Below are positions 42,858-63,300 of a stretch of DNA of 64,000 nucleotides, piece by piece (the stretch's first letter is position 1; every line of letters begins with the position of its first letter). The translations under genes and the position numbers were made by a program. Where the stretch lies: positions 1-64,000 of the forward strand of contig JAYZQJ010000019.1 in assembly GCA_036149055.1 (NCBI GenBank). The letters run 5' to 3'. This stretch comes from Myxococcota bacterium. Lineage in GTDB: Bacteria; Myxococcota_A; Polyangia; Polyangiales; Sandaracinaceae. The notes under the pieces are model-generated. The model ran no database searches. It saw nothing but the letters and a program-made list of their open reading frames with translations, and was not told the DNA's origin.

Positions 42858-44141
42858 ATGGAGCACTTCGGTAGCTCGGTTCCGCTCTGGGCGGTGATCC
42901 CCTTCGCGGTGATGCTGCTCGGGATCGCGGTGCTGCCGCTGGTCGCCCATCACTGGTGGGAGAGCAACAAGAACCGCGCGATCTTCACCGCGGTCGTCGC
43001 CACCCCGATGGTCGGCTACCTGCTGTGGAAGTTCCCGGTCGGCCTGCTGCACAGCGGCGAGGAGTACGTCTCCTTCATCGCGCTGCTCGGCTCGCTCTAC
43101 GTGATCGCCGGCGGCATCCACGTCTCGGGTGACCTGCGCGCCAGCCCCGGCACCAACACGGCCATCCTCGGCCTCGGCGCGGTGCTCGCGAACCTGATCG
43201 GCACCACCGGCGCGAGCATGCTGCTCATCCGCACGCTGCTCCGCACCAACGGGCAGCGCGAGCACGTCGCCCACCTGCCGTTCTTCTTCATCCTGCTGGT
43301 GTCGAACTGCGGCGGCCTGCTGACCCCGATGGGCGATCCGCCGCTCTTCCTCGGCTACCTGCGCGGCGTGCCCTTCACCTGGACGCTGAAGCTCTGGCCG
43401 TTCTGGCTGATGGCGGTCGGCTACCTCCTCGTCGTCTTCTACGTCTTCGACCGGCGCGCCTACGGCAAGGAGCAGGCGAAGAACATCGCGCGCGACGAGG
43501 TGGAGCGCGTGCCGCTCAGCGTGCAGGGCGCGATCAACGCCCCGCTCCTCGTCGGCGTCATCGGCGCGATCTTCCTGCCCATCGGCTGGCGCGAGGCGGT
43601 GATGGTCGCCCTCACCCTCATCAGCGTCTTCGCCGGCCCGCGCCCGGCGCGGAAGGCCAACGGCTTCACCTACGGGCCGATCCTCGAGGTCGCGATCCTC
43701 TTCGCGGGCATCTTCGTCACCATGGTGCCGGCGCTCGCGCTGCTCGAGTCGCGAGGCGACGAGCTCGGCCTCGACGCGCCCTGGCAGTTCTTCCTGGTCA
43801 CCGGCGGCCTGAGCTCGATGCTCGACAACGCCCCGACCTACCTGACCTTCCTCGCCACCGCGATCGGCCTCGACATCCAGCAGGACGGCGCGGTGATGCT
43901 GCAGCTGACCGAGGGCGCGGTCCCCGAGACCTTCCTCGTCGCCATCAGCACGGCGGCGGTGTTCATGGGCGCCAACACCTACATCGGCAACGGCCCGAAC
44001 TTCATGGTGAAGGCCATCGCGGAGGAGGTCGGCTACCGCATGCCGAGCTTCTTCGGCTTCGCCCTCCGCGCCCTGATCGTGCTCCTCCCCATCTACATCG
44101 CGATGGTCGTCTACCTGTCCTTCGCCTGGCCTCCCGGCTGA
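42858..44141 (+). CDS. Putative sodium:proton antiporter (IT superfamily)
   Basis: IGTTGASMLL, GGLLTPMGDPPLFLGY, LSSMLDNAPTYL, GANTYIGNGPNFMVKAIAE. Confidence 0.88.
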   Translation: MEHFGSSVPLWAVIPFAVMLLGIAVLPLVAHHWWESNKNRAIFTAVVATPMVGYLLWKFPVGLLHSGEEYVSFIALLGSLYVIAGGIHVSGDLRASPGTNTAILGLGAVLANLIGTTGASMLLIRTLLRTNGQREHVAHLPFFFILLVSNCGGLLTPMGDPPLFLGYLRGVPFTWTLKLWPFWLMAVGYLLVVFYVFDRRAYGKEQAKNIARDEVERVPLSVQGAINAPLLVGVIGAIFLPIGWREAVMVALTLISVFAGPRPARKANGFTYGPILEVAILFAGIFVTMVPALALLESRGDELGLDAPWQFFLVTGGLSSMLDNAPTYLTFLATAIGLDIQQDGAVMLQLTEGAVPETFLVAISTAAVFMGANTYIGNGPNFMVKAIAEEVGYRMPSFFGFALRALIVLLPIYIAMVVYLSFAWPPG

Positions 44142-44448
44142 GCTTCCTGGAGGGTTTGGTGCAAACCCTCCCCCCATTGGGCAAAGCGCCAATGGGGCCA
44201 CCCTCCCGACTCCGTCGGCGCGTCGCGCTTCGCGCTCGCGCCGCGACCCCAGCGACGGGGCGCTGGGGGCCTTGCGGCTCGCGCTCGCGCTGCGCGCTCG
44301 CTGGCCGCCCGCTGCCGCGGGATCGAACACAGGTGGTGGTGGTCCGTGCGGCGACCTCGCTGCGCTCGTCGCCTGCCGTCGTCTCGGGTCTGCGTCGTGG
44401 AAGCGGGCTCGGGCTGCCCCCGCGCAATTGTTTGCCACCTCCCGACTC
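44137..44448 (+). repeat. About 312-bp structured dispersed repeat, copy 1 (REP/MITE- or ncRNA-like)
   Basis: Aligns end to end with the reverse complement of 50799-51209; several hairpins, e.g. GGAGGGTTTG-gtg-CAAACCCTCC. Confidence 0.9.
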
Positions 44449-49416: not shown

Positions 49417-49986
49417 ATGACCGTCGCCGAGTGGCTGAAGGGTGAGGGCGCGCACCACGACCTGGTCGAGTGGGCGAGCGCCCACGGGGACGACTGGGAC
49501 GCGCTCTGGCGGGCCTGCCCCCGGGGCGACTGGCTGCTCGGGATCGCGGCGCGCCGCGGCGTCGATCGGCGCGCGCTCGTCGAGGCGGCCTGCGCGTGCG
49601 CCGCGCTGGCCTTCGATCACCTGCCCGAGGCCGAGACGCGCCCGCAGGCGGCGGTCGAGGCGGCCCGCGCCTGGGTCGCCGGCGCCGACGACGAAGCCGC
49701 GCGGGCGCGGGCGAGCGCGGACGTCGACGCCGCCATCGAGGGGGCGCCCGATCCGGCGGTCGCCGCCGCCGCCACCGCGGCCCTCGCCTGCCTCGGCGCG
49801 ATCGACGATCCCTCCGAGGCCGCGACCGCCGCCGCCAGCGCGATCCACGCCGCGGCCCTCGACGCCGTCGACTGCGGCCTCGGGAGCGCGGTCCGCTACG
49901 CCCAGGCCGAGACCGCCGACCGGGTCCGCGCGGTCTTCCCCGCCCCGCCGTCCGATCAGAGCGACGCCGTTCAGAGCAACGGGTAG
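49417..49986 (+). CDS. Ala-rich helical protein, Imm5-like putative immunity family
   Basis: WRACPRGDWLL..AACACA..ETRPQAAVEAARAWVAG; family assignment tentative. Confidence 0.6.
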   Translation: MTVAEWLKGEGAHHDLVEWASAHGDDWDALWRACPRGDWLLGIAARRGVDRRALVEAACACAALAFDHLPEAETRPQAAVEAARAWVAGADDEAARARASADVDAAIEGAPDPAVAAAATAALACLGAIDDPSEAATAAASAIHAAALDAVDCGLGSAVRYAQAETADRVRAVFPAPPSDQSDAVQSNG

Positions 49987-50711
49987 GCCCCGAACAGGCA
50001 GCAGGCGCCGAAGAGGGTCACCAGCAGGAGCGCGGGCGCGAGGGCGGCGAACGCCGCGCGTCCATCCGAGAGGCCGTGGCTGTGCTTGGCCACCATGGCG
50101 AGCTCGCCGATGAGCCACAGCTCGGTGGCGAGCACCAGGACCGTCGCGACGACCGGGTTGGCGGAGACCCGCGTGAACGCGAACACGAACGGGTAGAACA
50201 CGAGCGGGGCGTGCGCGTAGGCGCAGCCCCAGACGCTGGCCGCGATCCCTCGCCCGCCGGCGAGCCGCACGGCGGCGTGGAAGGCGACCGCGCGGCCGAG
50301 GAACAGGGCCCCGTGGAAGATCATGAGGCCCACGAAATGCAGCACCGCCAGGGGGACCGCCGCCTGCCACCTCAGGAGCGCGGGGACGGTGGCGGCCGAG
50401 CTCACCGCGGCCAGCGGCACCAGCAGCGTGACGAGGTACACCAGGGCGGCGCTCCATCGGCCCGGCGCGGCGCCGGCGAAGGTGGCGCTCGAGCGGAACA
50501 GAACGTCGGTGGTCGTTCGCCACCATCGCTCGACTGCGCCGCCGACCGGCCGCTCCCAGGCGATCCGATCGAGACCGAGACGGGCGCGACAGGCGGCGCA
50601 GCTCTCGGCGCTCCCGCCCATGCACTCCGGGCACACGAGATCCCCGCAGCGCGCGCAGAGGGTCTCGGCCGGCGCGTCGGGGTGCCGCCCGCACCGGGCC
50701 TGCTCGGGCAT
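49971..50711 (-). CDS. B-box-like zinc finger plus Yip1-like membrane protein (paralog 3)
   Basis: CGRHP..CARCGDLVCPEC..CAAC, IAWER, about 5 TM helices. Confidence 0.75.
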   Translation of the reverse strand: MPEQARCGRHPDAPAETLCARCGDLVCPECMGGSAESCAACRARLGLDRIAWERPVGGAVERWWRTTTDVLFRSSATFAGAAPGRWSAALVYLVTLLVPLAAVSSAATVPALLRWQAAVPLAVLHFVGLMIFHGALFLGRAVAFHAAVRLAGGRGIAASVWGCAYAHAPLVFYPFVFAFTRVSANPVVATVLVLATELWLIGELAMVAKHSHGLSDGRAAFAALAPALLLVTLFGACCLFGAYPLL

Positions 50712-50798
50712 CTCCAACGTCACTGCGTCTCCATCAACACACGGAGACTTGCACGATGCCAGGGTGCGAGTCGAGGGTGCAAGTCGAGGCTGCCGGTC

Positions 50799-51209
50799 GA
50801 GTCGAGAGGTGGCAAACCATGGCGCGGGGGCAGTCCAAGCCCGCCTCCGCGACGACTGACCCGAGACGACTGACCCGAGACGACTGACCCGAGACGACGG
50901 ACCCGAGACGACGGACCCGAGACGACGGACCCGAGACGACTGACCCGAGACGACTGACCCGAGACGACGGCAGGCGACGAGCACAGCGAGGTCGCCGCAC
51001 ACGCCACCACCTGTGTTCGATCCCGCGGCAGCGGGCGGCCAGCGAGCGCGCAGCGCGAGCGCGAGCCGCAGGGCCCCCAGCGCCCCGCGCTGGGGTCGCG
51101 GGGCCAGCGCGCGAAGCGCGCGAGGCCCCGACGGAGTCGGGAGGGGGGCCCCATTGGCGCTTTGCCCAATGGGGGGAGGGTTTGCACCAAACCCTCCAAC
51201 AAGCTCAGC
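50799..51209 (-). repeat. Structured dispersed repeat, copy 2 (411 bp including the tandem expansion)
   Basis: Reverse-complement homolog of 44137-44448. Confidence 0.9.
50851..50962. repeat. Tandem repeat, 8 x 14 bp gacgac(t/g)gacccga
   Basis: Counted directly; variant order t,t,t,g,g,g,t,t; no spacers. Confidence 0.95.
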
Positions 51210-51741
51210 GCTTCACGTCGTCGAGCAGCCAGGGCTCGAAGTCGGGGTCTCCCTGGCTGGCGTGGTGCAGCACCGAGATGTCGCCCGTGCCCTCGAAGAC
51301 GACCGCGCGCACCTGCGAGAAGTTGTGCACGTTGGCCTCGCGCAGCTTCGCGCGGAGGTCGTCCTCGGTCACCCGCGCCTTCGCGAGGTTGGCCTTCAGG
51401 ATGCGCTCGCCGTCCATCAGCAGCAGCGGCGAGTTGTCGATCGCGCGGTGGAAGCGGTCGAAGCGCCGCCGCAGAACACTGATCACCCGCTGGGCGACGA
51501 ACAGCGTCGCGAGCCCGGCGAGCCCCTGCCCGAGCGAGATGCTGTCGGAGATCATCGTGCTCGCCATCAAGGTGCCGACGCCGACGGTCATCGCGAAGTC
51601 GTAGGAGCTCATCTTCGAGAAGCTCCGCAGCCCGTTGATCCGCACCGCGAGGATGACCGAGAGATAGACGACGACGCCGGTGACCGCGACCCGGATGAGG
51701 GTCCCCAGCTCCGGCAGCTCCTTGGCCCAGTCCACATCCAT
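51205..51741 (-). CDS. DUF421/YetF family membrane protein, 178 aa
   Basis: GLRSFSKMSSYDF..PLLLMDGERIL..LRAKLRE..VRAVVFEGTGDISVL. Confidence 0.88.
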   Translation of the reverse strand: MDVDWAKELPELGTLIRVAVTGVVVYLSVILAVRINGLRSFSKMSSYDFAMTVGVGTLMASTMISDSISLGQGLAGLATLFVAQRVISVLRRRFDRFHRAIDNSPLLLMDGERILKANLAKARVTEDDLRAKLREANVHNFSQVRAVVFEGTGDISVLHHASQGDPDFEPWLLDDVKR

Positions 51742-52865: not shown

Positions 52866-53705
52866 TCAGTCCGGCAGCAGCGCGAGCTCGAGCAGCAGCC
52901 ACGAGCCGCCGAAGATGCAGCCCGCCCCGAGCACCAGCAGCGCGAGGAACGGCGCCCAGCCCGCGAAGGCGGCGCGTCCGGAGGGGAGCCGGTGGTGCAC
53001 CCGGGCCGCCGCCACGAGCCCGATCGCGACGAGCGCCTCGACGCCGAGCAGCAGCAGCAGCACGAGGAGCCCCCGCACCGGAGCGGGCACGAGCTCGAGC
53101 GCGAACAGCCCCGCCGTGAGCAGGTACGCTCCGTGGGCATACCCGGCGGACCAGAGGCTCACCCGCCAGCCTCGACGAGAGCCCGAGAGCCTCGCGGCGA
53201 GGTGAAAGGCCAGCCCGCGGAGCGCCGCCCACCCGATCTGCGCGAGCGCCGCCCCCAGCAAGAGCGAGAGCCACACCACAGCGACGCCGAGCGCCACGCC
53301 GGGCCGGGGGGGCCGTACGTAGGAGCTCCAGCCGCGGTACAGCACCACCCCCAGGGGCGCGATCGCCTGCGCGACCCCCACGAGGGCCACGAAGGTCAGC
53401 GCGCGCCGCCAGTCGCCGGCCGCGGCGCCCTCGATCGTGCGGACGGGCGCGAGCACGAGGCGGCGAGCGGTGACGAGCCACCGGCGCCACCACGCACCGT
53501 CGGCGGTCTCCCAGGGCAGCGGCGCGCCGCCGCCGACCCGCTCGCGACACGCCTCGCAGAGATCGTCCCGGAGCGCCTCGTGGTCCAGGCAGCGCTCGCA
53601 CACGTTGTTGCCGCAGCGCGCGCACGTCCGGATGGCGGCCGCGTCGTGGACCGCGCAGACGGCGCCCAGCGCGACCGTATCGTCGCTCCCGTGGTCCTCG
53701 CTCAC
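52866..53705 (-). CDS. B-box-like zinc finger plus Yip1-like membrane protein (paralog 2)
   Basis: CAVH..CARCGNNVCERC..CEAC, LPWE; GTGA overlap with the upstream paralog. Confidence 0.78.
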   Translation of the reverse strand: MSEDHGSDDTVALGAVCAVHDAAAIRTCARCGNNVCERCLDHEALRDDLCEACRERVGGGAPLPWETADGAWWRRWLVTARRLVLAPVRTIEGAAAGDWRRALTFVALVGVAQAIAPLGVVLYRGWSSYVRPPRPGVALGVAVVWLSLLLGAALAQIGWAALRGLAFHLAARLSGSRRGWRVSLWSAGYAHGAYLLTAGLFALELVPAPVRGLLVLLLLLGVEALVAIGLVAAARVHHRLPSGRAAFAGWAPFLALLVLGAGCIFGGSWLLLELALLPD

Positions 53706-54553
53706 GGGTCGAGCCACGGCATGCTCGCGAAGAACACGATCGTGAGCACGCAGCAGCCGAGGCCGAGGACCGTGAACACCAGGAACGGCATCCAACCGGC
53801 GAGCGCGGCGCGGTTGGGCGGCAGGTCGTGGCGCACCCGCGCGAGCGTGGTCAGCTGGATCGCGGTCCACACCTCGATGGCCAGATACACCAGCATCGAG
53901 ATCACCGGCCCGACGACCGGCAGGTTGCCCAGGATGGCGGCGACGAGCGTGGTCAGCTGGATGGCGTGCACGTAGCTCGTGCCCCAGACGCTGACCGCGA
54001 GCCCGCGCCCGCCGCCCGAGATGGCGACGCCGGCGTGAAAGATCAGCGCGCGCATCCCCACCATGAAGAGGTGCCAGCCGACGAGGATGAGCGGATACGC
54101 CACCGCCACGCCGATCGCGATCGCGGCGAAGAGCGGATCCTGGGCCTCCGGCCCGATCACGCTCTCCCACATGCCGAACGCGAGCAGGCACCCCGCGCCG
54201 CAGAGGAGAAGCGACGTCTGCACCGCCGCCACCGCGCCCCCCGTCACCGCCGCGTACCCGAAGGCCGCCGTCCACGGCCCCGGCGCGCACCCCTCGAGGG
54301 TGTCGGTCGGCCGGAGCAGCATCTGGCGAGTGGTGTTCAGCCAGCGCCGGAACCAGGGCTCGCCGGCCCGCTCCCAGGGGATGACCCCGCCGCCGACGCG
54401 CTCCCGGCAGCTCTCACAGTGATCGGGCAGCGCCCCGTCGGGCTCCAGGCAGGCCGGGCAGACGTTGTTCCCGCAGCGCGCGCACGTCCCCGTGGCCGCC
54501 GCCCCTTCGTGCGCGGCGCAGACCGCGACCGTCGTCTCCGGCGTCGGCTCCAT
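53702..54553 (-). CDS. B-box-like zinc finger plus Yip1-like membrane protein (paralog 1)
   Basis: CAAH..CARCGNNVCPAC..CESC, IPWER, about 5 TM helices. Confidence 0.8.
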   Translation of the reverse strand: MEPTPETTVAVCAAHEGAAATGTCARCGNNVCPACLEPDGALPDHCESCRERVGGGVIPWERAGEPWFRRWLNTTRQMLLRPTDTLEGCAPGPWTAAFGYAAVTGGAVAAVQTSLLLCGAGCLLAFGMWESVIGPEAQDPLFAAIAIGVAVAYPLILVGWHLFMVGMRALIFHAGVAISGGGRGLAVSVWGTSYVHAIQLTTLVAAILGNLPVVGPVISMLVYLAIEVWTAIQLTTLARVRHDLPPNRAALAGWMPFLVFTVLGLGCCVLTIVFFASMPWLDP

Positions 54554-54608: not shown

Positions 54609-56858
54609 CTACTCGAGACGGACGGCGCCGTCTCGGGCGGTGACGAGGACGCGGCGATCCCGGAAGGAGGGGTCGGACGCGATGCGGGCGGCGAGCGGGG
54701 TGAAGACGCGCTCCTCGATCACGCGGCGCAGCGGGCGGGCGCCGTAGCGAGGGTGGAAGCCGAGCTCGGCGAGGCGATCGCGGGCGTCGGGGTGGACCAC
54801 CAGCTGGAGGTTCCGGCGCTGCAGGCCGGCGCGCGAGAGCGCCTTGCGGAGCTCGAGATCGCAGACCCGGCGCACGTCCTCGCGGTCGAGGTGGCGGAAG
54901 CTCACCACCTGATCGAGGCGGTTGACCAGCTCGGGGCGGAAGCGATCGCGGACCGCGCGGGCGAAGTCGTCCCGGGGCGCGGCGTCGAAGCCGACCGGCG
55001 CGCGCTCCCCCGCGCCGACGTTGCTGGTCAGCACGATGACCGTCATGCGGAAGTCGACGAGGCGGCCCATCGCGTCCGTCAGGCGCCCCTCGCCGAGCAC
55101 GCCGAGCAGCAGATCGAAGACCTCCGGGTGCGCCTTCTCCAGCTCGTCGAAGAGCACCAGCGAGAGCGGCTGACGGTGGACCTGCTCGGCGAGGCTGGTC
55201 ACGCCGCGGCCCACCTGCCGGAGCCGATCGACCGCGCCTGGCACCATGTACTCGCTCAGGTCCACCCGGACGAGGCGCCCCGCGTCGCCGAAGAGCACCC
55301 GGGCGAGCTGCTTGGCGAGCTCCGTCTTGCCCACGCCGGTCGGGCCGACGAAGAGGAGGTTGCCGAGCGGCCGCTCGGGGTCGGCCAGCCCGGCCTTGAA
55401 GCGCGCGAGGACCCGGCCGGCGCCGTGACACGCCGCGTCCTGGCCGATGACGCCCTCGCGGAGGCGCGCCGCCATCTCGTCCACGGTGGCCGACGCCTCG
55501 TCCGCGATCAGCTCGGCCGGGAGCCCGACGTGGCGCGCGTACCAGCGCGAGGCGTCGGCCGGGTCGACGCGGCCGGGGCGCTGCTGAGCGAGCCAGTCGA
55601 GCATCGCGAAGCCCTTGCCGGGGAAGCGCTGGTGGCGCCCGAACGCGTCGAGGTGCCGCACGAGCCGGTCGAGCGCCGCCGGGTGCACGTCGAGCTCCTT
55701 GCGCGCGGCCCAGGTGCGCATCAGCGCCACCACGCGAGCGCGGGAGGGCTCCTCGATCCGGACGATCCGGAAGGCGTCGAGGAGGCGGCCGGCGCGGCGA
55801 CGCGCCTCGACCAGCTCGCCCTCGGTGCACTCCGCGATCACCGGGAGCTGCCCGCCCATCACCGCCGGGGCGAGCAGCTCCGCGATGGAGCTGCCGTCGC
55901 CCTGGGGCCGGAGCAGGGGCGGCAGCGGGCCGAGGTAGAGCAGCTCGTCCTCGCCCTCGAGCTCGCGCACCATGTCGAGCACGCGCTCCTGCCACATGCC
56001 GAGGTAGATCATGCCGGCCAGGATGCGGTCCGCGCTCGTGGCCCAGAGCCGCGCGGGCACGTCTCGACCGGCGCGCTGCTGACGGAGCAGCCAGCGTGCG
56101 AGCCGTCGCACGAAGGTCGTCTTGCCGACGCCGCGCTCACCCACCAGCAGCAGCGAGGGCCGGACCGGCTGGGCGAGCGCGCGGACCTCCTCGTCGAAGA
56201 CGGGGTCCTCGCCGATCACGGGCGCGAGCTTCTTGCGGCCGGCGCGCTCCACCCACTCGTCGGCCACCGCCTCCATCGTGCGCGTCTCGCCCCGGCCGAA
56301 GGCGAGCGACAGCTCGAGCGCGCGCGGCGCCTCCTTCTTCAGCCACTCCGGGGTCCAGGGCACCACGCGCTCCTCGCCCTGGCGACGGAAGGCGAAGAGC
56401 CACGCGGGGTCCTCACCGAGGAGGGCGCCGCTGACCGCCTGCTCGAGCACCTTCGCGGCGCTCTCCAGGCTCTCGAGCATCAGCCACCAGCGGAACCGCG
56501 GGAGCATCACGCGGTAGGCGCCGCCCTTCATCTGGCACCACACGTAGGAGAGCTTCAGCGGGACCTCGCGCGCGCCGACCACCGGCTGCCGCTCCACCAC
56601 CGAGGCCGGGTGGATCGACAGGGGCACGGTCCGCACGTGGAGCTCCTCGCTCCAGAGGTAGCGGCCGAGCTCGTCCTCGCGGGTGGCGAGGAGCCCCCGG
56701 AGCGCGGCGTCGAGCTCGGCGAGCGCGTCCTCCAGCGTCTCGGCGTAGGCGCTCGGAGGGAGCTCGTCGAAGAACGACTCGCGGGTGCGGACGAGGGTCG
56801 CGAGGACCCGGCCGTCGTCGAGCTCGACCACGTGCACGCGGAGGCTCTTCTCGATCAC
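54609..56858 (-). CDS. Atypical ClpA/B-like double-AAA+ ATPase, short form (749 aa)
   Basis: GERGVGKT; FPGK; GVIGQDAA; GPTGVGKTELAK; FDELEKAHP; RPELVNRLD; YGARPLRR. Confidence 0.88.
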   Translation of the reverse strand: MIEKSLRVHVVELDDGRVLATLVRTRESFFDELPPSAYAETLEDALAELDAALRGLLATREDELGRYLWSEELHVRTVPLSIHPASVVERQPVVGAREVPLKLSYVWCQMKGGAYRVMLPRFRWWLMLESLESAAKVLEQAVSGALLGEDPAWLFAFRRQGEERVVPWTPEWLKKEAPRALELSLAFGRGETRTMEAVADEWVERAGRKKLAPVIGEDPVFDEEVRALAQPVRPSLLLVGERGVGKTTFVRRLARWLLRQQRAGRDVPARLWATSADRILAGMIYLGMWQERVLDMVRELEGEDELLYLGPLPPLLRPQGDGSSIAELLAPAVMGGQLPVIAECTEGELVEARRRAGRLLDAFRIVRIEEPSRARVVALMRTWAARKELDVHPAALDRLVRHLDAFGRHQRFPGKGFAMLDWLAQQRPGRVDPADASRWYARHVGLPAELIADEASATVDEMAARLREGVIGQDAACHGAGRVLARFKAGLADPERPLGNLLFVGPTGVGKTELAKQLARVLFGDAGRLVRVDLSEYMVPGAVDRLRQVGRGVTSLAEQVHRQPLSLVLFDELEKAHPEVFDLLLGVLGEGRLTDAMGRLVDFRMTVIVLTSNVGAGERAPVGFDAAPRDDFARAVRDRFRPELVNRLDQVVSFRHLDREDVRRVCDLELRKALSRAGLQRRNLQLVVHPDARDRLAELGFHPRYGARPLRRVIEERVFTPLAARIASDPSFRDRRVLVTARDGAVRLE

Positions 56859-59800
56859 GGCGTCCCCCGCTCGCGGCTCGCGCGCAGCCAGACCAGCGGG
56901 CGCAGCGCGTCGATCGGCCGCCGCGACCGCTCCACGATCACCTGCCCGCTCGGGTAGTCCTCGATCTCCAGCGGGGCCGCCTCACCCGGGCGTGGCGGCG
57001 GGTCGAAGCGCAGGCGCCGGACCGCCGGGAGGAGGCCCGCCGGGTCGGGCGGCAGCGGGGACTCTCCCCGCTCGAGCGCCCGCTCGAAGCGCCGCGCCGC
57101 GTCGTCGTGCGCCTCGAGGACCGCAGCGCAGGACTCGGCGTCGTGGAGGGTGACCCGCACGATCTCCGCGCCCGACAGGAGCGACGACCAGACGTGGCAG
57201 CCGCGCTCGCCCTCGAGGAAGCTGCGGGTCGCCACCCCGTAGAGCTCGAGGACCAGCTGCGTCGGCCGGGTCGCGAGCAGCGCGCGCAGATCGACGGCCT
57301 CGCCCGACGCCTGGATCTCGCCGTCCGGGGTGCGCGCCGCGGCCGCCACCAGCTCGCCGCGCAGCCCCGCGTAGAGCTCGGCCAGCCACCCGAAGAGCCC
57401 GTCCGGGGCGCGGTCGTAGCGCGGCGGGCGCCGGCCCTGCCCGACCCGGAGCAGCTCGAGGAAGACGCGATGCTCGGCCGGCTCGGCCAGGCGCCCCACC
57501 GCGCGCTCGAGCAGCGTGATCTCGCCGACGCGCCGGAGGATCTCGTTCTTGGAGAGCGCAGCCGAGGGCCCGCGCACCGCCCGGCGGTCGAGGCGCTTGA
57601 CCTTCGACTTGAGGCGCCAACCAGAGTCCCCCTCGGAACGCTCCCGCACCGCGTCGACCTCGAGCTCGCGCGCCACGTCGGCGTTCGCGTGGGTCCGCAG
57701 ATCCAGGTCGGCGCGCAGCGCCTCGAGATCGGCCCGGAAGCGGTCGAGCGCGTAGAGCGTGCTGGCGCCCCGCGCGTCCCCACGCCCGACGCGCTCCATC
57801 AGCGCGCTCCGCCGCGCCTCGAGCGCCTCGAGCGCCTCGCTCTCCTGCAGGTCGCGGGTCCGGGCGAGCAGGCGCGGGAGGAGCTTCACCAGGGACGACG
57901 CCGGCTGCTGGAGCAGCCCCTCGAGCGCGTGGCGCGCGTCCTCGAGCGGCGCCTCCACCAGCGCGTCGATGTGCAGCCGGTACGCCTCGCCCTCGACGTA
58001 GACCCGCGCGATCCGCATCTCCGCCCGACTGCCGCGGGCGAGCTCGTCCGACAGGAGCGCGCCCACCGTCGCCTCGAGGTGGCGCTTGACGCTCCGGGCG
58101 CCGTCGCGCGCGTCGAAGGCGTCCTCGGCCATGCGCTTCACCGCCTCGGGGTGAGGGAAGACGAAGACCCGCCGGTCGGTCAGGCCGCGCCGCGCGAGGA
58201 GCTGCGCGAGCTCCTTCTCGCAGACCCGCTCGGCGACCTCGGGCGTGAGCGGCGCGAACGGCACCACGCGATCGATCCGGTTGAAGAGCTCGGGCGGGAA
58301 GAACTCGCGCACCGCTCGATCCACGTCGCGCAGCACCGCGTCCGCCCGCTCACCGAAGCCGACCGCGGCCCGCGGCTTGGCGCCGAGGTTCGAGGTCATC
58401 ACGATCACCGCGCGCCGGAAGTCGGTGACCGCGCCCCCCGCGTCCGTCAGCCGCCCCTCGTCGAGCAGCTGCAAGAGGAGCTGCAGCACCGCCGGGTGCG
58501 CCTTCTCGACCTCGTCGAGCAGCACCACGCAGAACGGCTGCTGGCGCACGGCGTCGGTCAGCTGACCGCGCGGATCGAAGCGATCCCCGATGAGGCGCGC
58601 CACCGAGTCCGGCCCCGTCATCTCGCCCATGTCGACGCGGACGAGGCGCGACTCGTCGCCGTAGAGGAAGCCGGCCAGGGCCTTGGCCATCTGCGTCTTG
58701 CCGGTGCCGGTCGGCCCGGTGAAGAGGTAGGTCGCGAACGGGCGCTCGGGGTCGGTGAGCCCGGCGCGGATGCGCGCGACCAGGTCCACCGCGGCCCGCA
58801 CCGCCTCGTCCTGCCCGAGCACGTGCTGCGCGAAGCTCGCCTCGAGCGCGTCCGGGTCCAGCGAGGCGTCGGGGCGGAGCAGCACCTCGGGCAGGCCGGT
58901 GCGGCGCGCGAGGAAGCGCACCACCGCGTCGCCGTCGATCTCGACCTGGGCCTCGACCTCGACCTGGGCCTCGAAGGAGGCGTCGGCCGCGAGCCGGCGG
59001 AGGAGATCGACCGCGACCCCGGGCCGCGCGGTCCCGGGGTGGAGCGTCTCGCCGAGCTGCAGCACCGCGCGGTACACGTCGGGCGTGAAGGCCACGCGGC
59101 GGCTCGGCTCGAGCTCCCGCGCCTCGTGCAGCAGCAGGTGCATCGTCTCGGCCGGGTCGGTGGGCGTGACCCGCAGGGTGGCGAAGCGGTCGGCGAAGGT
59201 CGGCGCGTGCTCCTGCAGGCGGTGCCACTCGCTCGGCGTCGCCTCGCCGATGATCGTGATCTCGCCGCGGGCGACCGGGCCGCGGAAGAAGTCGGCCAGG
59301 CTCCGGTCGCTCTCGCGGCTGCGCCCGGCGGTCCCGAAGGCGTGGAGGTCCTCGACCCACAGCACGACCCGCGGGTCGGTCGCCTCGTGCGCGAGCTCCA
59401 CGCAGCGCTGCTCCCACTCGCCGATGTGGCTCATGCCGGCGAGGATGCGCGCGGTCGACACCCGCCAGACCTCGTGCGCGCGGTCCAGGTTGCGGTGCGA
59501 GGGGAAGTCGTCGGCCTCGAGCAGATCGCTCGCCCAGCGGTGGAGCAGCGTCGTCTTGCCCACGCCCGGCGGGCCGAGGAGCACCACCGGCTGCTTGCGG
59601 GGGCCGTCGAGCAGCTGCCCGAGCTGCGCCCGCCAGGGCTCGCGCGGTCGGCCCAGGGGGATCGCTCCGTCGGCGATCCGGGCGGTGAGGTTCTCGCCGA
59701 GCGCGCGGAGCTGCTTGCGCCCGTACCGCGACCGTCGCTTCTTCTTCTTCCGCCGGCCGCGATCGGGGTCGAGCTCGAGGTCGGCGAACGGGTCCGGATC

Positions 59801-60325
59801 CGCGCCGACGTCGTCGATGAGCTGCGGCACGCGCTCGGAGAAGCTGAACGCGCGCAGCATGTCCTTGCCGTCGGTCACCAGCTCCTCGGTGACGAAGTCG
59901 GCGCCGATGGCCTTCCACGCGTGGGCGAAGAAGCGCCTCGCCTGCGGGGCGAGCGGCGCGTCCTCGTCGACCACGAAGAACTGGTTCGCGAGCAGCGGGT
60001 GATAGGCGATGGCGACGCGCTCCCCGGGCCGCCGCCAGCGCGGCTCCCGCACGAGCGGGAAGAGCCCCGAGACGCGCTTGCGATCGGCGACGGTCAGCTC
60101 GAGGTGCACGCGCTCGAGCCGCCGGCCGCGCACGAGCTCCAGGGCCGCGACCTCCTCGGGGCTCATCTGCCGGATGAGGCGCCGCAGCTCGTCGGCGAGC
60201 CCGCGCTGGATCTTGGTCGGGCTCTTGCCCTGGCGGCGGAGCGCGTGGGCCCCGAGCCCGACCGTCGCCCACTCGAGCTGGCCGCGTCGTCGGCGCTGGT
60301 AGACGGTGACGGTGACCTGGGTCAC
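56855..60325 (-). CDS. Atypical ClpA/B-like double-AAA+ ATPase with C-terminal PCRF-like extension (1156 aa)
   Basis: GPPGVGKT; GPTGTGKT; LDEVEKAHP; PELFNRID; DGARSVKR; C-terminal LVLELYG..FLEGERGCH. Confidence 0.88.
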   Translation of the reverse strand: MTQVTVTVYQRRRRGQLEWATVGLGAHALRRQGKSPTKIQRGLADELRRLIRQMSPEEVAALELVRGRRLERVHLELTVADRKRVSGLFPLVREPRWRRPGERVAIAYHPLLANQFFVVDEDAPLAPQARRFFAHAWKAIGADFVTEELVTDGKDMLRAFSFSERVPQLIDDVGADPDPFADLELDPDRGRRKKKKRRSRYGRKQLRALGENLTARIADGAIPLGRPREPWRAQLGQLLDGPRKQPVVLLGPPGVGKTTLLHRWASDLLEADDFPSHRNLDRAHEVWRVSTARILAGMSHIGEWEQRCVELAHEATDPRVVLWVEDLHAFGTAGRSRESDRSLADFFRGPVARGEITIIGEATPSEWHRLQEHAPTFADRFATLRVTPTDPAETMHLLLHEARELEPSRRVAFTPDVYRAVLQLGETLHPGTARPGVAVDLLRRLAADASFEAQVEVEAQVEIDGDAVVRFLARRTGLPEVLLRPDASLDPDALEASFAQHVLGQDEAVRAAVDLVARIRAGLTDPERPFATYLFTGPTGTGKTQMAKALAGFLYGDESRLVRVDMGEMTGPDSVARLIGDRFDPRGQLTDAVRQQPFCVVLLDEVEKAHPAVLQLLLQLLDEGRLTDAGGAVTDFRRAVIVMTSNLGAKPRAAVGFGERADAVLRDVDRAVREFFPPELFNRIDRVVPFAPLTPEVAERVCEKELAQLLARRGLTDRRVFVFPHPEAVKRMAEDAFDARDGARSVKRHLEATVGALLSDELARGSRAEMRIARVYVEGEAYRLHIDALVEAPLEDARHALEGLLQQPASSLVKLLPRLLARTRDLQESEALEALEARRSALMERVGRGDARGASTLYALDRFRADLEALRADLDLRTHANADVARELEVDAVRERSEGDSGWRLKSKVKRLDRRAVRGPSAALSKNEILRRVGEITLLERAVGRLAEPAEHRVFLELLRVGQGRRPPRYDRAPDGLFGWLAELYAGLRGELVAAAARTPDGEIQASGEAVDLRALLATRPTQLVLELYGVATRSFLEGERGCHVWSSLLSGAEIVRVTLHDAESCAAVLEAHDDAARRFERALERGESPLPPDPAGLLPAVRRLRFDPPPRPGEAAPLEIEDYPSGQVIVERSRRPIDALRPLVWLRASRERGTP

Positions 60326-63300
60326 GACGCCTCGCCTTCCTCGTCCTCGTCCTCGGCGAGCACGTCGATCGAGGCGTCCGCGCGGCCGCTCCGCTCGAGC
60401 CAGAGGAGGTGGGTCAGCGCGATGGCCTCGAGGCGCGCCCAGTACTCGGCCAGCGAGAGGGTCAGCGTCGCGCCGCCGGGGAGCGTGAGCACCTCACCCT
60501 CGTGCTCGCGCACCGCGGGGAGCAGGCGCCGCCGGGTCGACGAGGGGATGGGCTCCGGGTGGAGCCGCGGCGAGTCGAGGGCGTCGTCGGGCAGGTCGGC
60601 GGCGTGGCGCAGCGTGGTCACGACGAAGGTCGCCGGGGTCGCCCCCTCGTGCCCGCGGTAGCGGTGGAGCCCCGCCTCGAGCGCGAGCAGGTGACCGGCG
60701 TGACGGCCGCGAACCCGGAGCAGGAGCGCGAGGGGGCCGCGGTCGGGCTGGGCGAGGCGATGGGCGAGCGCGTCGGCGTCGCGCGGCGGGCCCCAGCGCC
60801 GCTCGGTCGGCCAGTCGGCGGGCTTCGGCGCCGGGTCCTTCTCCACGTGGCCGAGGATCTGCCAGCCGAGCCGCTCGCGCGCCTCGAGCAGCCCGCCGAG
60901 CCAGCGGTTCAGCGGGCGCTGCCCGTCGTGCTCCTGCACGCGCACCGTGATCGCGTGGCGCTCGTCGTTCGCGATCAGCAGCTCCAGCAGCGCGGCGCGG
61001 AAGGTGAGGTCCGCCTGGCCGACGAGCGCGGCCATCTCCGACACCGGCTCCCCGGCGAGCGAGGCGACGACCGACAGCTCCTCGATGGACTCGATCTCGG
61101 CCACCGCCGCGTCCACCGCGTCGAGCCGCTCGCGCAGCCCGGCGAGCTCGGATTGCAGCATCGCCGCCTCCGTCCCGCGCACGCCGTCGCCGTAGGACAC
61201 CTCGGCGAGCAGGTACTGCGCGCGCTCGCGGAGCTCGGCCGCCGTCGGGACCTCGCGCGTCTCGTGGGCCCAGCGGCGGGTGGCCGAGACCCGGGCGAGC
61301 AGGGCCGCGTCCTCCCGGGCGCTGCGGGGCGGGCCGCGCAGGATCTCGTAGACGAGGCCGTCGCGGGTCTCGGCGTGCAGGCGACCGCCCTCGGGCGCCG
61401 GATCGCGCTCGCCGCGCACCACCAGCCGCGCGTTCCGGGCCGCGGCGCCGAGCGGACCGAGCGCCCGGGCCAGCGGCGCGACGAGCGCGTCCTCGAGGTG
61501 CCGACGCAGCGCCCGCGCCCCGTAGGCCGCCTCGAAGCCGCCGTCGGACAGCGCGTCGAGCGCCGCCTCGCTGACCTCGAGCGTCGCCCCGAGCTCCACC
61601 AGCCCGCGCCGCATCGCGAGGCGCTCGACCGTCAGCCCGGCGATCGCGCGGATCTCGCCGCGGCTCAGCGGCGCGAACGGGATCACGCGATCGATGCGGT
61701 TGACCAGCTCGGGCCGGAACCAGCCCTCCACCGCCTCCAGGTACCGCGCGCCCTCGTCGACGGCCGGCGGGTCGATGCCGACGGCGCGGCTGCGGTGCCG
61801 CGTGCCGAGGTTGCTGGTCATGACCACGATCGCGTCGTGGAAGTAGGCGGTGCGGCCGCGGGCGTCGGTCAGGCGGCCCTCGCCGAGCACGCCGAGCAGG
61901 AGGTCGAACACGCTCGGGTGCGCCTTCTCGATCTCGTCGAGCAAGACGACGCAGAACGGCTGCTGACGCACCGCGCTCGTCAGCTGGCCCTCGCCGCTCG
62001 CGCTGCCGTGGACGAGCCGCGTCGCCGCGCCCGGATCGGCCATCTCGGACATGTCGAAGCGGACGAGCCGCTCGGCCGAGCCGAAGAGGAGCTCGGCCAG
62101 CGCGCGGCAGAGCGCCGTCTTGCCCACCCCGGTCGGCCCGGCGAAGAGGAAGCTCGCGAGCGGCTTGTCGCCCGGCGCCAGCCCCGCCTTCACCACCGCC
62201 AGCGTGTCCACCAGGCGGTCCACCGCGTCGGCCTGGCCCACGATCCGCCGCGCGAAGAACGCCCGGGCCCGCTCACGACGCCAGGCGACGTCGTCCCGCA
62301 GGAGCAGCTCGGGCACGCCCGTCTGAGCGGAGAAGAGCGCGTAGACGTCCTCGGCCCGCAGCCGCTTCGCCTCCGCGTGGTGGGCGCGCTCGGCGCTCGC
62401 GCGCAGCTCCTCGAAGAGGCGCACCGCCTTGCCGGGGAAGGCGCGGTAGGGGAGGAAGCGGTCGGTCAGCTCGACGACGGCGCCGATCGCGCCGCGATCC
62501 AGGTTGGCGCGCTGCGGCTCCCTGCGCGCGGCGTACTCGATGCAGGCCTCCAGCGCGGCCCGCCCGGCCCGCGCGTCCTGCGGCTCGAGGCGCAGCGGGT
62601 GCATCGAGGCGAAGAGGCCGGGGTGACGGCTCGCGAAGAGATCCGCCGCCTCGGGCGTCAGCTCCCCGACGACCCGGACTCGCCCGTCGTCGAGCCAGGG
62701 GCGGATCGCCGACGGGAGGTCCACGTACGCGCCGGCGTGGTCGCCGAGCAGGTCGCGCAGGTCGTCGAGCCAGAGCACCGCGTCGAGGGTCTCGGCCGCC
62801 GCGAGCACGCGCTCGACCCGGGCTTGCCACTGCCCGGCCCCGCTCATGCCCGCCACGAGCTGCGCCCCGCTGGTCGCGTAGAGGAACGGCGCGTCCTCGC
62901 CCTTCGCGCGGAGCCAGCGCTGGACCAGGGTCGTCTTGCCGACCCGCGACTCCCCCACCAGCAGCACCGAGCGGCGCGCCTCGCCGCCGAGCAGGGCGTC
63001 CAGGATCGCCCCCGGGGCCTCCTGCCCGACCGGGTCGGGGCCGCGCACGTCCTCCGGGACCACCCGCCGACCGATCGCGCCGAGCACGCGCTTCGCCTCC
63101 GCCCGGCGACGCGCGTCGTCCACCCGGCGTCGCAGCGCCCGGGCCCCCGCGCCGGGGAGCGCGCGTCGGTCGACCTCGACGGTCACCCGGGACAGCTCGC
63201 GCTCCCGGGCCGACATCAACGCGAGCAGCGCGGTCGCGTCCGGCGCGAGCACGTGCAGGTAGCGCTGCACCTCGGCCTTCAGCACCTCCTCGAGCGACTC

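Follow-up and report, generated by a model that had tools for sequence, protein, structure and literature searches.

To our knowledge, the Clp ATPases known from bacteria are single-protein rings, aimed by degrons or adaptors. Three Clp motifs, KYR, GYVG and IGL, are named in excerpts of PMC9663308, where the Tyr of GYVG is regarded as indispensable to threading; excerpts of PMC5897788 treat what SPF and GGQ do in release factors. In this work, we describe an operon in which parts of both kinds of protein are joined. It lies on the minus strand of a window of 64,000 nucleotides, the whole stretch of DNA analysed (positions 1 to 64,000 of contig JAYZQJ010000019.1, from a Myxococcota bacterium of the Sandaracinaceae), and consists of three adjoining Clp/Hsp100-type genes, P1, P2 and P3, whose start and stop codons overlap from gene to gene. 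P1 (60322..63669, 1115 amino acids, aa) and P2 (56855..60325, 1156 aa) encode double AAA+ ATPases ending in a tail derived from the release factor RF2, whereas P3 (54609..56858, 749 aa) is a third paralogue without a tail.

An earlier note on this DNA had seen release-factor-like motifs without GGQ in the two long proteins, and had proposed a non-hydrolytic, decoding-like module fused to an unfoldase. Both open reading frames (ORFs) are as it gave them, 63669-60322 and 60325-56855. The quoted motifs are located at residues 905-1004 of P1 (60658-60957) and 953-1107 of P2 (57005-57469), close to the ranges first indicated (these nucleotide positions were derived arithmetically from residue numbers), and GGQ is absent from both translations.

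Tails derived from RF2

The tails of P1 and P2 derive from RF2 and have the fold of its domains 1, 2 and 4. This origin rests on the ranking of PDB sequences, on a profile match and on a shared domain-1 motif. In P1, the tail spans residues 790-1115 (60325..61302) and comprises a helical domain 1 (about 60961-61302), a domain 2 with an inserted Trp/Pro-rich loop (about 60595-60960) and a probable remnant of domain 4 (about 60370-60537), placed by the P1-P2 profile alignment; domain 3 is absent. The profile of 14 P1 tails (the frameshifted P1 of L029 was excluded from tail alignments) matched 16 PDB sequences at E<=10, 15 of which are RF1 or RF2: the first 13 in the ranking are RF2 (best E 5.8e-4) and two more are RF1. 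Aligned by hhalign with 15 RF2 sequences, the P1 tail reached 87% (E 4e-6, score 50) in 170 columns that span domains 1 and 2; the reversed control scored 17.8 and 12 block shuffles at most 21.8. Pfam PCRF was found in 4 of 14 P1 relatives, below its cut-off (best E 0.003), and in none of the 16 P2 relatives; on the window's own tails, Pfam and NCBIfam gave no release-factor match.

By sequence, the P2 tail (residues 795-1156, 56858..57943) resembles RF2 weakly (hhalign 9%, E 0.004), and its profile, run against PDB sequences, returned no release factor and coiled-coil noise only. The AlphaFold2 model, obtained from 146 rows, has a pLDDT (predicted local distance difference test) of 92.8 and a pTM (predicted TM-score) of 0.90, and features the helices of domain 1 (about 57491-57943), domain 2 (about 57140-57478), a single helix replacing domain 3 (about 57041-57139) and domain 4 (about 56876-57040). 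Class I release factors alone were found among the Foldseek matches listed, at least 26 of them at E<=1e-3, with low whole-chain TM-scores (0.18-0.33). By VIA, E. coli RF2 (1gqe) aligns with model residues 14-359 at Z 13.1 (279 residues aligned, root mean square deviation, rmsd, 6.9), and the core of domains 2 and 4, about 140 residues, fits RF2 at 3.0 Å (Z 12.0); many RF1 and RF2 chains superpose on the same region at about 3 Å. The VIA ranking is led by 45 release-factor entries, with Z from 13.1 to 6.9, the first unrelated chain being at rank 46 (Z 6.6). Arg1103, found in 100% of the 146 rows, and Asp1123 (98%) align with RF2 domain 4.

The two tails match each other by profile (88-93%), BLAST of tail against tail not being significant; a complex prediction for the pair scored 0.00, which speaks neither for nor against binding. 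The comparison with release factors suggested by the earlier note thus put RF2 first, for P1 by profile and for P2 by VIA, and the claimed likeness to domains 2 and 4 is above chance, in P1 by profile and in P2 by predicted structure. It is also wider than claimed, as it includes domain 1, which corresponds to the "helical segment" noted behind D2, and points to RF2 specifically.

Domain 3, the hydrolytic one, is deleted in both tails. From the His motif of domain 2 to the first strand of domain 4, RF2 has 122-124 aa (12 of 15 sequences measurable), P2 tails have about 59 aa (interquartile 57-60, n=145) and P1 tails about 50 aa (44-56, n=30): about 65-75 aa are missing, and GGQ is absent at their place. 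None of 30 P1 tails contains GGQ, and the letters SPF occur anywhere in only one; the letters GGQ are found in 5 of 134 P2 rows, each time at a different column, and SPF in none. The hydrolytic domain is lost, in line with the proposal. "Decoding-like" is too strong a term, because domain 3 is deleted and neither tail has GGQ or SPF: the fold is kept, but not the SPF loop, its invariant RF2 neighbours or the residues of the helix-5 tip.

The gap to RF2 is bridged by single-gene relatives, which occur in Planctomycetota, in Polyangiaceae and in one other metagenome-assembled genome; they were drawn from a sample of genome contigs (1/64 parts, generic Clp patterns), which is not a census. Four of their tails exceed the PCRF cut-off of Pfam (E 9e-19 to 2e-7), and single-gene tails match RF2 at 99.9% (E 5e-34) over 309 columns, the aromatic motif of domain 1 included; with the tails of P1 and P2 they reach 92% and 95%, respectively. 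Some retain a remnant of domain 3 without GGQ, and the domain-3 spacing in four of these forms is 107, 102, 84 and 41 aa. Two Planctomycetota forms (L057:1221-5039 and L060:2-3343) carry a near full-length RF2 tail with such a remnant and differ at the N-terminus, where HEAT repeats are recognized by Pfam in L060 and a look-alike is present in L057. A further C-terminal domain, of the L7/L12 C-terminal ribosomal type (Pfam E 1e-4), is fused to 2 of 14 P1 tails (L024:8149-9240 in G215 and L028:5300-6436 in G201).

Three paralogues and their setting

The AAA+ cores of the three proteins are about 37% identical to one another and score best against ClpA and ClpB models, with 275-326 bits against curated NCBIfam cut-offs (ClpA, ClpB, ClpV, ClpG) of 885-1900. 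In P1, the D1 module (residues about 205-455, 62305..63057) has kept Walker A and lost the Walker B Glu and the Arg fingers; D2 (residues about 470-745, 61435..62262) has intact catalytic residues, a ClpP-type loop and a short pore loop without aromatic residue. P2 has a degenerate D1 (residues about 206-450, 58976..59710) and a D2 (residues about 495-770, 58016..58843) with intact ATPase motifs and a ClpP-type loop.

An alignment with canonical Clp ORFs served to map the motif columns in 118 sequences (18 P1, 78 P2 and 22 P3); labels other than KYR, GYVG and IGL are those we take to apply. In D2, the Walker A Lys, Walker B Glu, sensor 1, Arg finger and sensor 2 are invariant (118 of 118), and an IGL-type ClpP docking loop motif is found in 95 sequences. 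The GYVG pore-1 loop of D2 is absent from all 118, the loop being of 11-12 residues instead of 17. "Unfoldase", the term of the earlier note, is thus apt for the catalytically intact D2, but less so for a protein with no GYVG grip loop and a degenerate D1. An aromatic residue in the D2 pore loop is found in 59 of 78 P2, in no P1 and in 1 of 22 P3 sequences; the D1 pore Tyr is present in all 22 P3 and in 40 of 78 P2 sequences, and P1 has Phe or Gly at this position. Throughout the family alignment, D1 keeps the Walker A Lys and has lost the Walker B Glu and, with rare occurrences, the Arg fingers: Glu occupies the Walker B column in 1 of 18 P1 and 0 of 78 P2 sequences, and is outside the five commonest residues in P3. 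A Glu two positions ahead of the D1 sensor-1 Thr is found in 18 of 18 P1, 60 of 78 P2 and 22 of 22 P3 sequences, where all five canonical Clp rows have Ala or Ser; speculatively, it may represent a catalytic residue that has moved.

The three genes keep their order and occur together, and their products have subunit-specific pore residues, as a probable three-part ring would show. The order P1-P2-P3 is found in 13 of 14 relative loci, the exception being G201, where P1 lies apart from P2-P3. Among 401 genomes of the same phylum, the P1 tail matches 16 (one spurious) and the P2 tail 17, in nearly the same genomes; the spurious match, in G068 (E 7.7e-4), was rejected because of an internal stop. 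In a second phylum, that of a Pirellulaceae genome, the P3 N-domain query matches 17 of 251 genomes, and 13 of the 16 fetched loci hold all three genes, again ordered P1-P2-P3 and with no tail on P3. In the remaining three genomes, the best-matching P1- and P2-like long ORFs lie elsewhere, clearly so in two, the P1 match of G531 being weak. In G403 the three types are found on three separate contigs, and the search of its phylum, with this one fast-evolving query, returned the query genome alone (1 of 251). Named homologues come from Sandaracinaceae, Polyangiaceae and Byssovorax.

In a FastTree tree of 111 cores, the family is set apart from 14 canonical Clps with a support of 1.0, the single-gene forms branch outside the trio, and the P1, P2 and P3 clades each span phyla (support 0.96, 0.86 and 0.99), two L055 genes excepted. 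The deltaproteobacterial trio of L055 (5689-15988) bears tails on all three ATPases, which suggests that a tailed ancestor was triplicated and that P3 may have lost its tail later. A Polyangiaceae genome, G405 (L071, L161, L162), holds both a single-gene tailed ATPase and a trio in which about 12 kb separate P1 and P2-P3.

The N-terminal domains, residues 1-190 of P1 (63100..63669) and 1-172 of P3 (56343..56858), match no Pfam family, nor does that of P2, and a helical Clp N-domain was recognized in none of the three. P1 and P3 are related in this region (hhalign 74%, E 3e-5); the profile matches of P1 with P2 and of P2 with P3 are weak (6% and 1%). The P3 N-domain is modelled as alpha/beta (pLDDT 89.5), with two units of three strands plus a helix; no sequence repeat between the halves of each N-domain was detectable. 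All structural matches of this model fall below the level that the search tool treats as reliable. The best are HicB antitoxin N-domains, weak at Z 5.7-6.2 (the top one with Z 6.2, rmsd 3.1 and 80 residues aligned), followed, at Z 3.5-5, by double-stranded RNA-binding domains (dsRBDs), release-factor domain 3 and HPF/YfiA. Foldseek gave no match at E<=1e-3, a HicB match having a probability of 0.99 with E 0.2; Pfam HicB matched none of 14 members, and an Atlas search gave no usable match.

P1, P2 and P3 are each single-copy in their own genome, which also contains five further Clp-type ATPases, two ClpP-family matches, intact RF1 and RF2, and an ArfB-like ORF. The RF2 gene of this genome reads open; those of six relatives (L136, L137, L139, L140, L141 and L146) have an in-frame stop near the start, presumably as expected from the programmed prfB frameshift. 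Contigs from RNA runs cover the operon and its flanking genes at a like low depth, which is not taken as transcription. In the loci of relatives from both phyla, no conserved neighbour gene was found beyond synteny among close kin. Downstream of the operon, on the same strand, lie three similar ORFs (53702-54553, about 52866-53700 and 49971-51002), each with a short Cys-rich, zinc-finger-like start followed by hydrophobic helices; the first has a B-box match (E 0.003), and none is conserved next to the operon in the loci of relatives. An intergenic repeat of about 260 bp, found at about 50945-51210 and 44137-44390 of the window, its best copies being 92-95% identical, yields 226 blastn segments across the genome at E<1e-8 and a high summed contig depth in RNA runs; it is possibly a MITE (miniature inverted-repeat transposable element) or a REP-like (repetitive extragenic palindromic) element.

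Possible roles of the tails

We tentatively favour a heteromeric, ClpP-coupled Clp ring, docked on ribosomes by a codon-blind mimic of RF2. P1, P2 and P3 would assemble into one mixed ring, probably a hexamer, with D2 as its putative sole hydrolysing ring; the tails would dock this ring on ribosomes without reading the codon, and the motor would extract a protein bound to the ribosome, or a stalled chain, which may then be handed to ClpP. A mixed ring is suggested by the same gene order, by the presence of the partners elsewhere when unlinked and by the clades that span phyla; the split of grip residues among the subunits is the pattern that it would show. The IGL-type loop and the two ClpP-family matches argue for the link to ClpP. 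Docking on ribosomes is favoured because single-gene forms and trios of different phyla have preserved the entire body of RF2 minus its catalytic arm, both ribosome-facing parts (domain 1; domains 2 and 4) being retained and domain 3 cut out, and because dead release factors elsewhere stay on ribosomes, Dom34 and MRPS35 providing the precedent in excerpts of PMC6514570. Further points in its favour are the single-gene relatives that bridge the gap to RF2, the acidity of P1 tails, which they share with RF2 (13 of 13, net -4 to -18), and the L7/L12-type domain fused to two of 14 P1 tails.

Even so, the case for docking is not strong, and we hold it with some doubt, since several observations weigh against it. 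The tails diverge roughly twice as fast as true RF2: in the same 13 genomes, the mean pairwise identity of tail domain 2 is 34%, against 64% for RF2 domain 2, and that of tail domain 4 is 24-35%, against 67%. Conservation in the tails seems to fall on residues of the fold core, and those invariant in RF2 at the tip of helix 5, whose role in RF2 is presumed here, and in the SPF loop are lost; the 146 P2 rows hold no conserved counterpart of the helix-5 glycines or SPF-loop residues. P2 tails are only weakly acidic (net +3 to -13). RF2 itself is intact in all 14 carriers tested, the trio occurs patchily, in 16-17 of 401 genomes of one phylum and 17 of 251 of the other, and no translation or protease gene was found as conserved neighbour in the relative loci. 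In Clp topology, a tail behind D2 is situated at the ClpP-facing end, remote from where substrates enter; furthermore, since GYVG is always absent, pulling may be weak.

A more specific form of the ribosome-docked ring is possible, if rather doubtful: a three-subunit AAA+ machine for ribosome quality control, in which codon-blind RF2 mimics would place the ring on stalled or hibernating ribosomes, the HicB- or dsRBD-like N-domains would pick the client and D2 would extract it for ClpP. If true, it would be a bacterial functional counterpart, made of unrelated parts, of the eukaryotic Pelota and Cdc48 pathway.

Fast divergence of the tails and loss of the RNA-contact motifs of RF2 are also compatible with the fold having been co-opted as a structural or regulatory arm of the mixed ring, or as a receptor for some protein outside the ribosome, so that it no longer touches ribosomes. 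P1 tails have new family-specific conserved loops (His941, Trp953, Gly960 and Pro961, at 97-100%), P3 does without a tail and there are no translation neighbours. This reading, which is rather unlikely, leaves unexplained why single-gene forms, and two of the three paralogues in different phyla, still have the whole RF2 body.

The patchy, self-contained character of the module and its fast-evolving ends (in the same 13 genomes, identity is 30-40% in the N-domains, 24-35% in tail parts, 43-48% in D1 and 59% in D2) would suit a conflict system, in which the tails act as RF2 decoys and the N-domains as HicB-like baits, catching proteins with which phages or competitors target translation, for the ring to remove or answer. 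We regard this as quite unlikely: HicB antitoxin domains are indeed the best structural matches of the N-domain, but Z <8 may reflect a common fold; no defence gene was found as conserved neighbour, and PADLOC gives generic D2-type AAA+ matches only, with nothing for the tails or the P3 N-domain.

A somewhat poorer candidate is binding of the tails to certain RNAs away from the ribosome, with the ring acting to remodel complexes of RNA and protein. Chloroplast PrfB3, a paralogue of RF2 that lacks SPF and GGQ, is described in excerpts of PMC5897788 as binding the 3' end of petB, and appears among the feature look-alikes of the P1 tail (0.82, a lead only); the N-domain model is weakly dsRBD-like (Z 4-5), and the protein-threading pore loop has been lost. 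P1 tails, however, are net acidic, and the retained ClpP-type loop suggests protein substrates. Lastly, although the gradient of loss, from RF2-like tails with a remnant of domain 3 to tails without (107, 102, 84 and 41 aa), could befit a decaying relic of an old clp-prfB fusion, a tail without function is very improbable because the tails are conserved, with 254 clusters at 50% identity holding a P2 tail, invariant residues in 146 rows, a confident fold and persistence in two phyla.

Comparison with known systems

A full-text search, covering listings and the first lines of abstracts and leaving subscription journals outside its scope, found no paper describing a fusion of Clp with a release factor, in answer to the literature check that the earlier note had recommended. 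"Clp" does not appear in the main text of PMC6514570, and the only Clp fusion mentioned in excerpts of PMC8195603 is to a Death-like domain.

Among catalytically dead release-factor derivatives acting on or in ribosomes (excerpts of PMC6514570), Dom34/Pelota has the unrelated eRF1 fold, and MRPS35 is the opposite of the tails described here, in that only its hydrolase domain has been retained. Chloroplast PrfB3 is, like them, an RF2 derivative without SPF and GGQ, but is a stand-alone plant protein binding an mRNA end, no ATPase fusion being described in excerpts of PMC5897788. HicB provides the best, weak matches of the P3 N-domain, which differs in being a tandem copy on an ATPase, with no hicA-like neighbour seen.

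The closest relatives remain RF2 and the class I Clp ATPases. With RF2 (PrfB; PF03462 and PF00472; PDB 1gqe) the tails share the fold and order of domains 1, 2 and 4, and the bridging single-gene relatives keep its type of aromatic motif in domain 1; in contrast to RF2, the tails lack domain 3, GGQ and SPF, are fused behind a Clp D2 and are about half as conserved. With ClpA/ClpC (TIGR02639) the trio shares a tandem D1-D2, matched to ClpA in one stretch, an intact D2 and an IGL-type loop. It differs in its score (270-325 bits against a cut-off of 993), in an alpha/beta rather than helical N-domain, in a degenerate D1, in the absence of GYVG, and in being a set of three specialized paralogues with an RF2 tail.

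A three-paralogue ring bearing a disarmed release factor would, if true, be a new means of aiming a Clp motor, and might also amount to a new pathway by which ribosomes are rescued or recycled, the whole system being three genes. Even without ribosome binding, it is a clear and traceable bacterial co-option of RF2, with intermediates still present in genomes. The trio fits membership neither of RF2 nor of ClpA/B/C, yet is built from known parts, and there is a real chance that it represents a new pathway.

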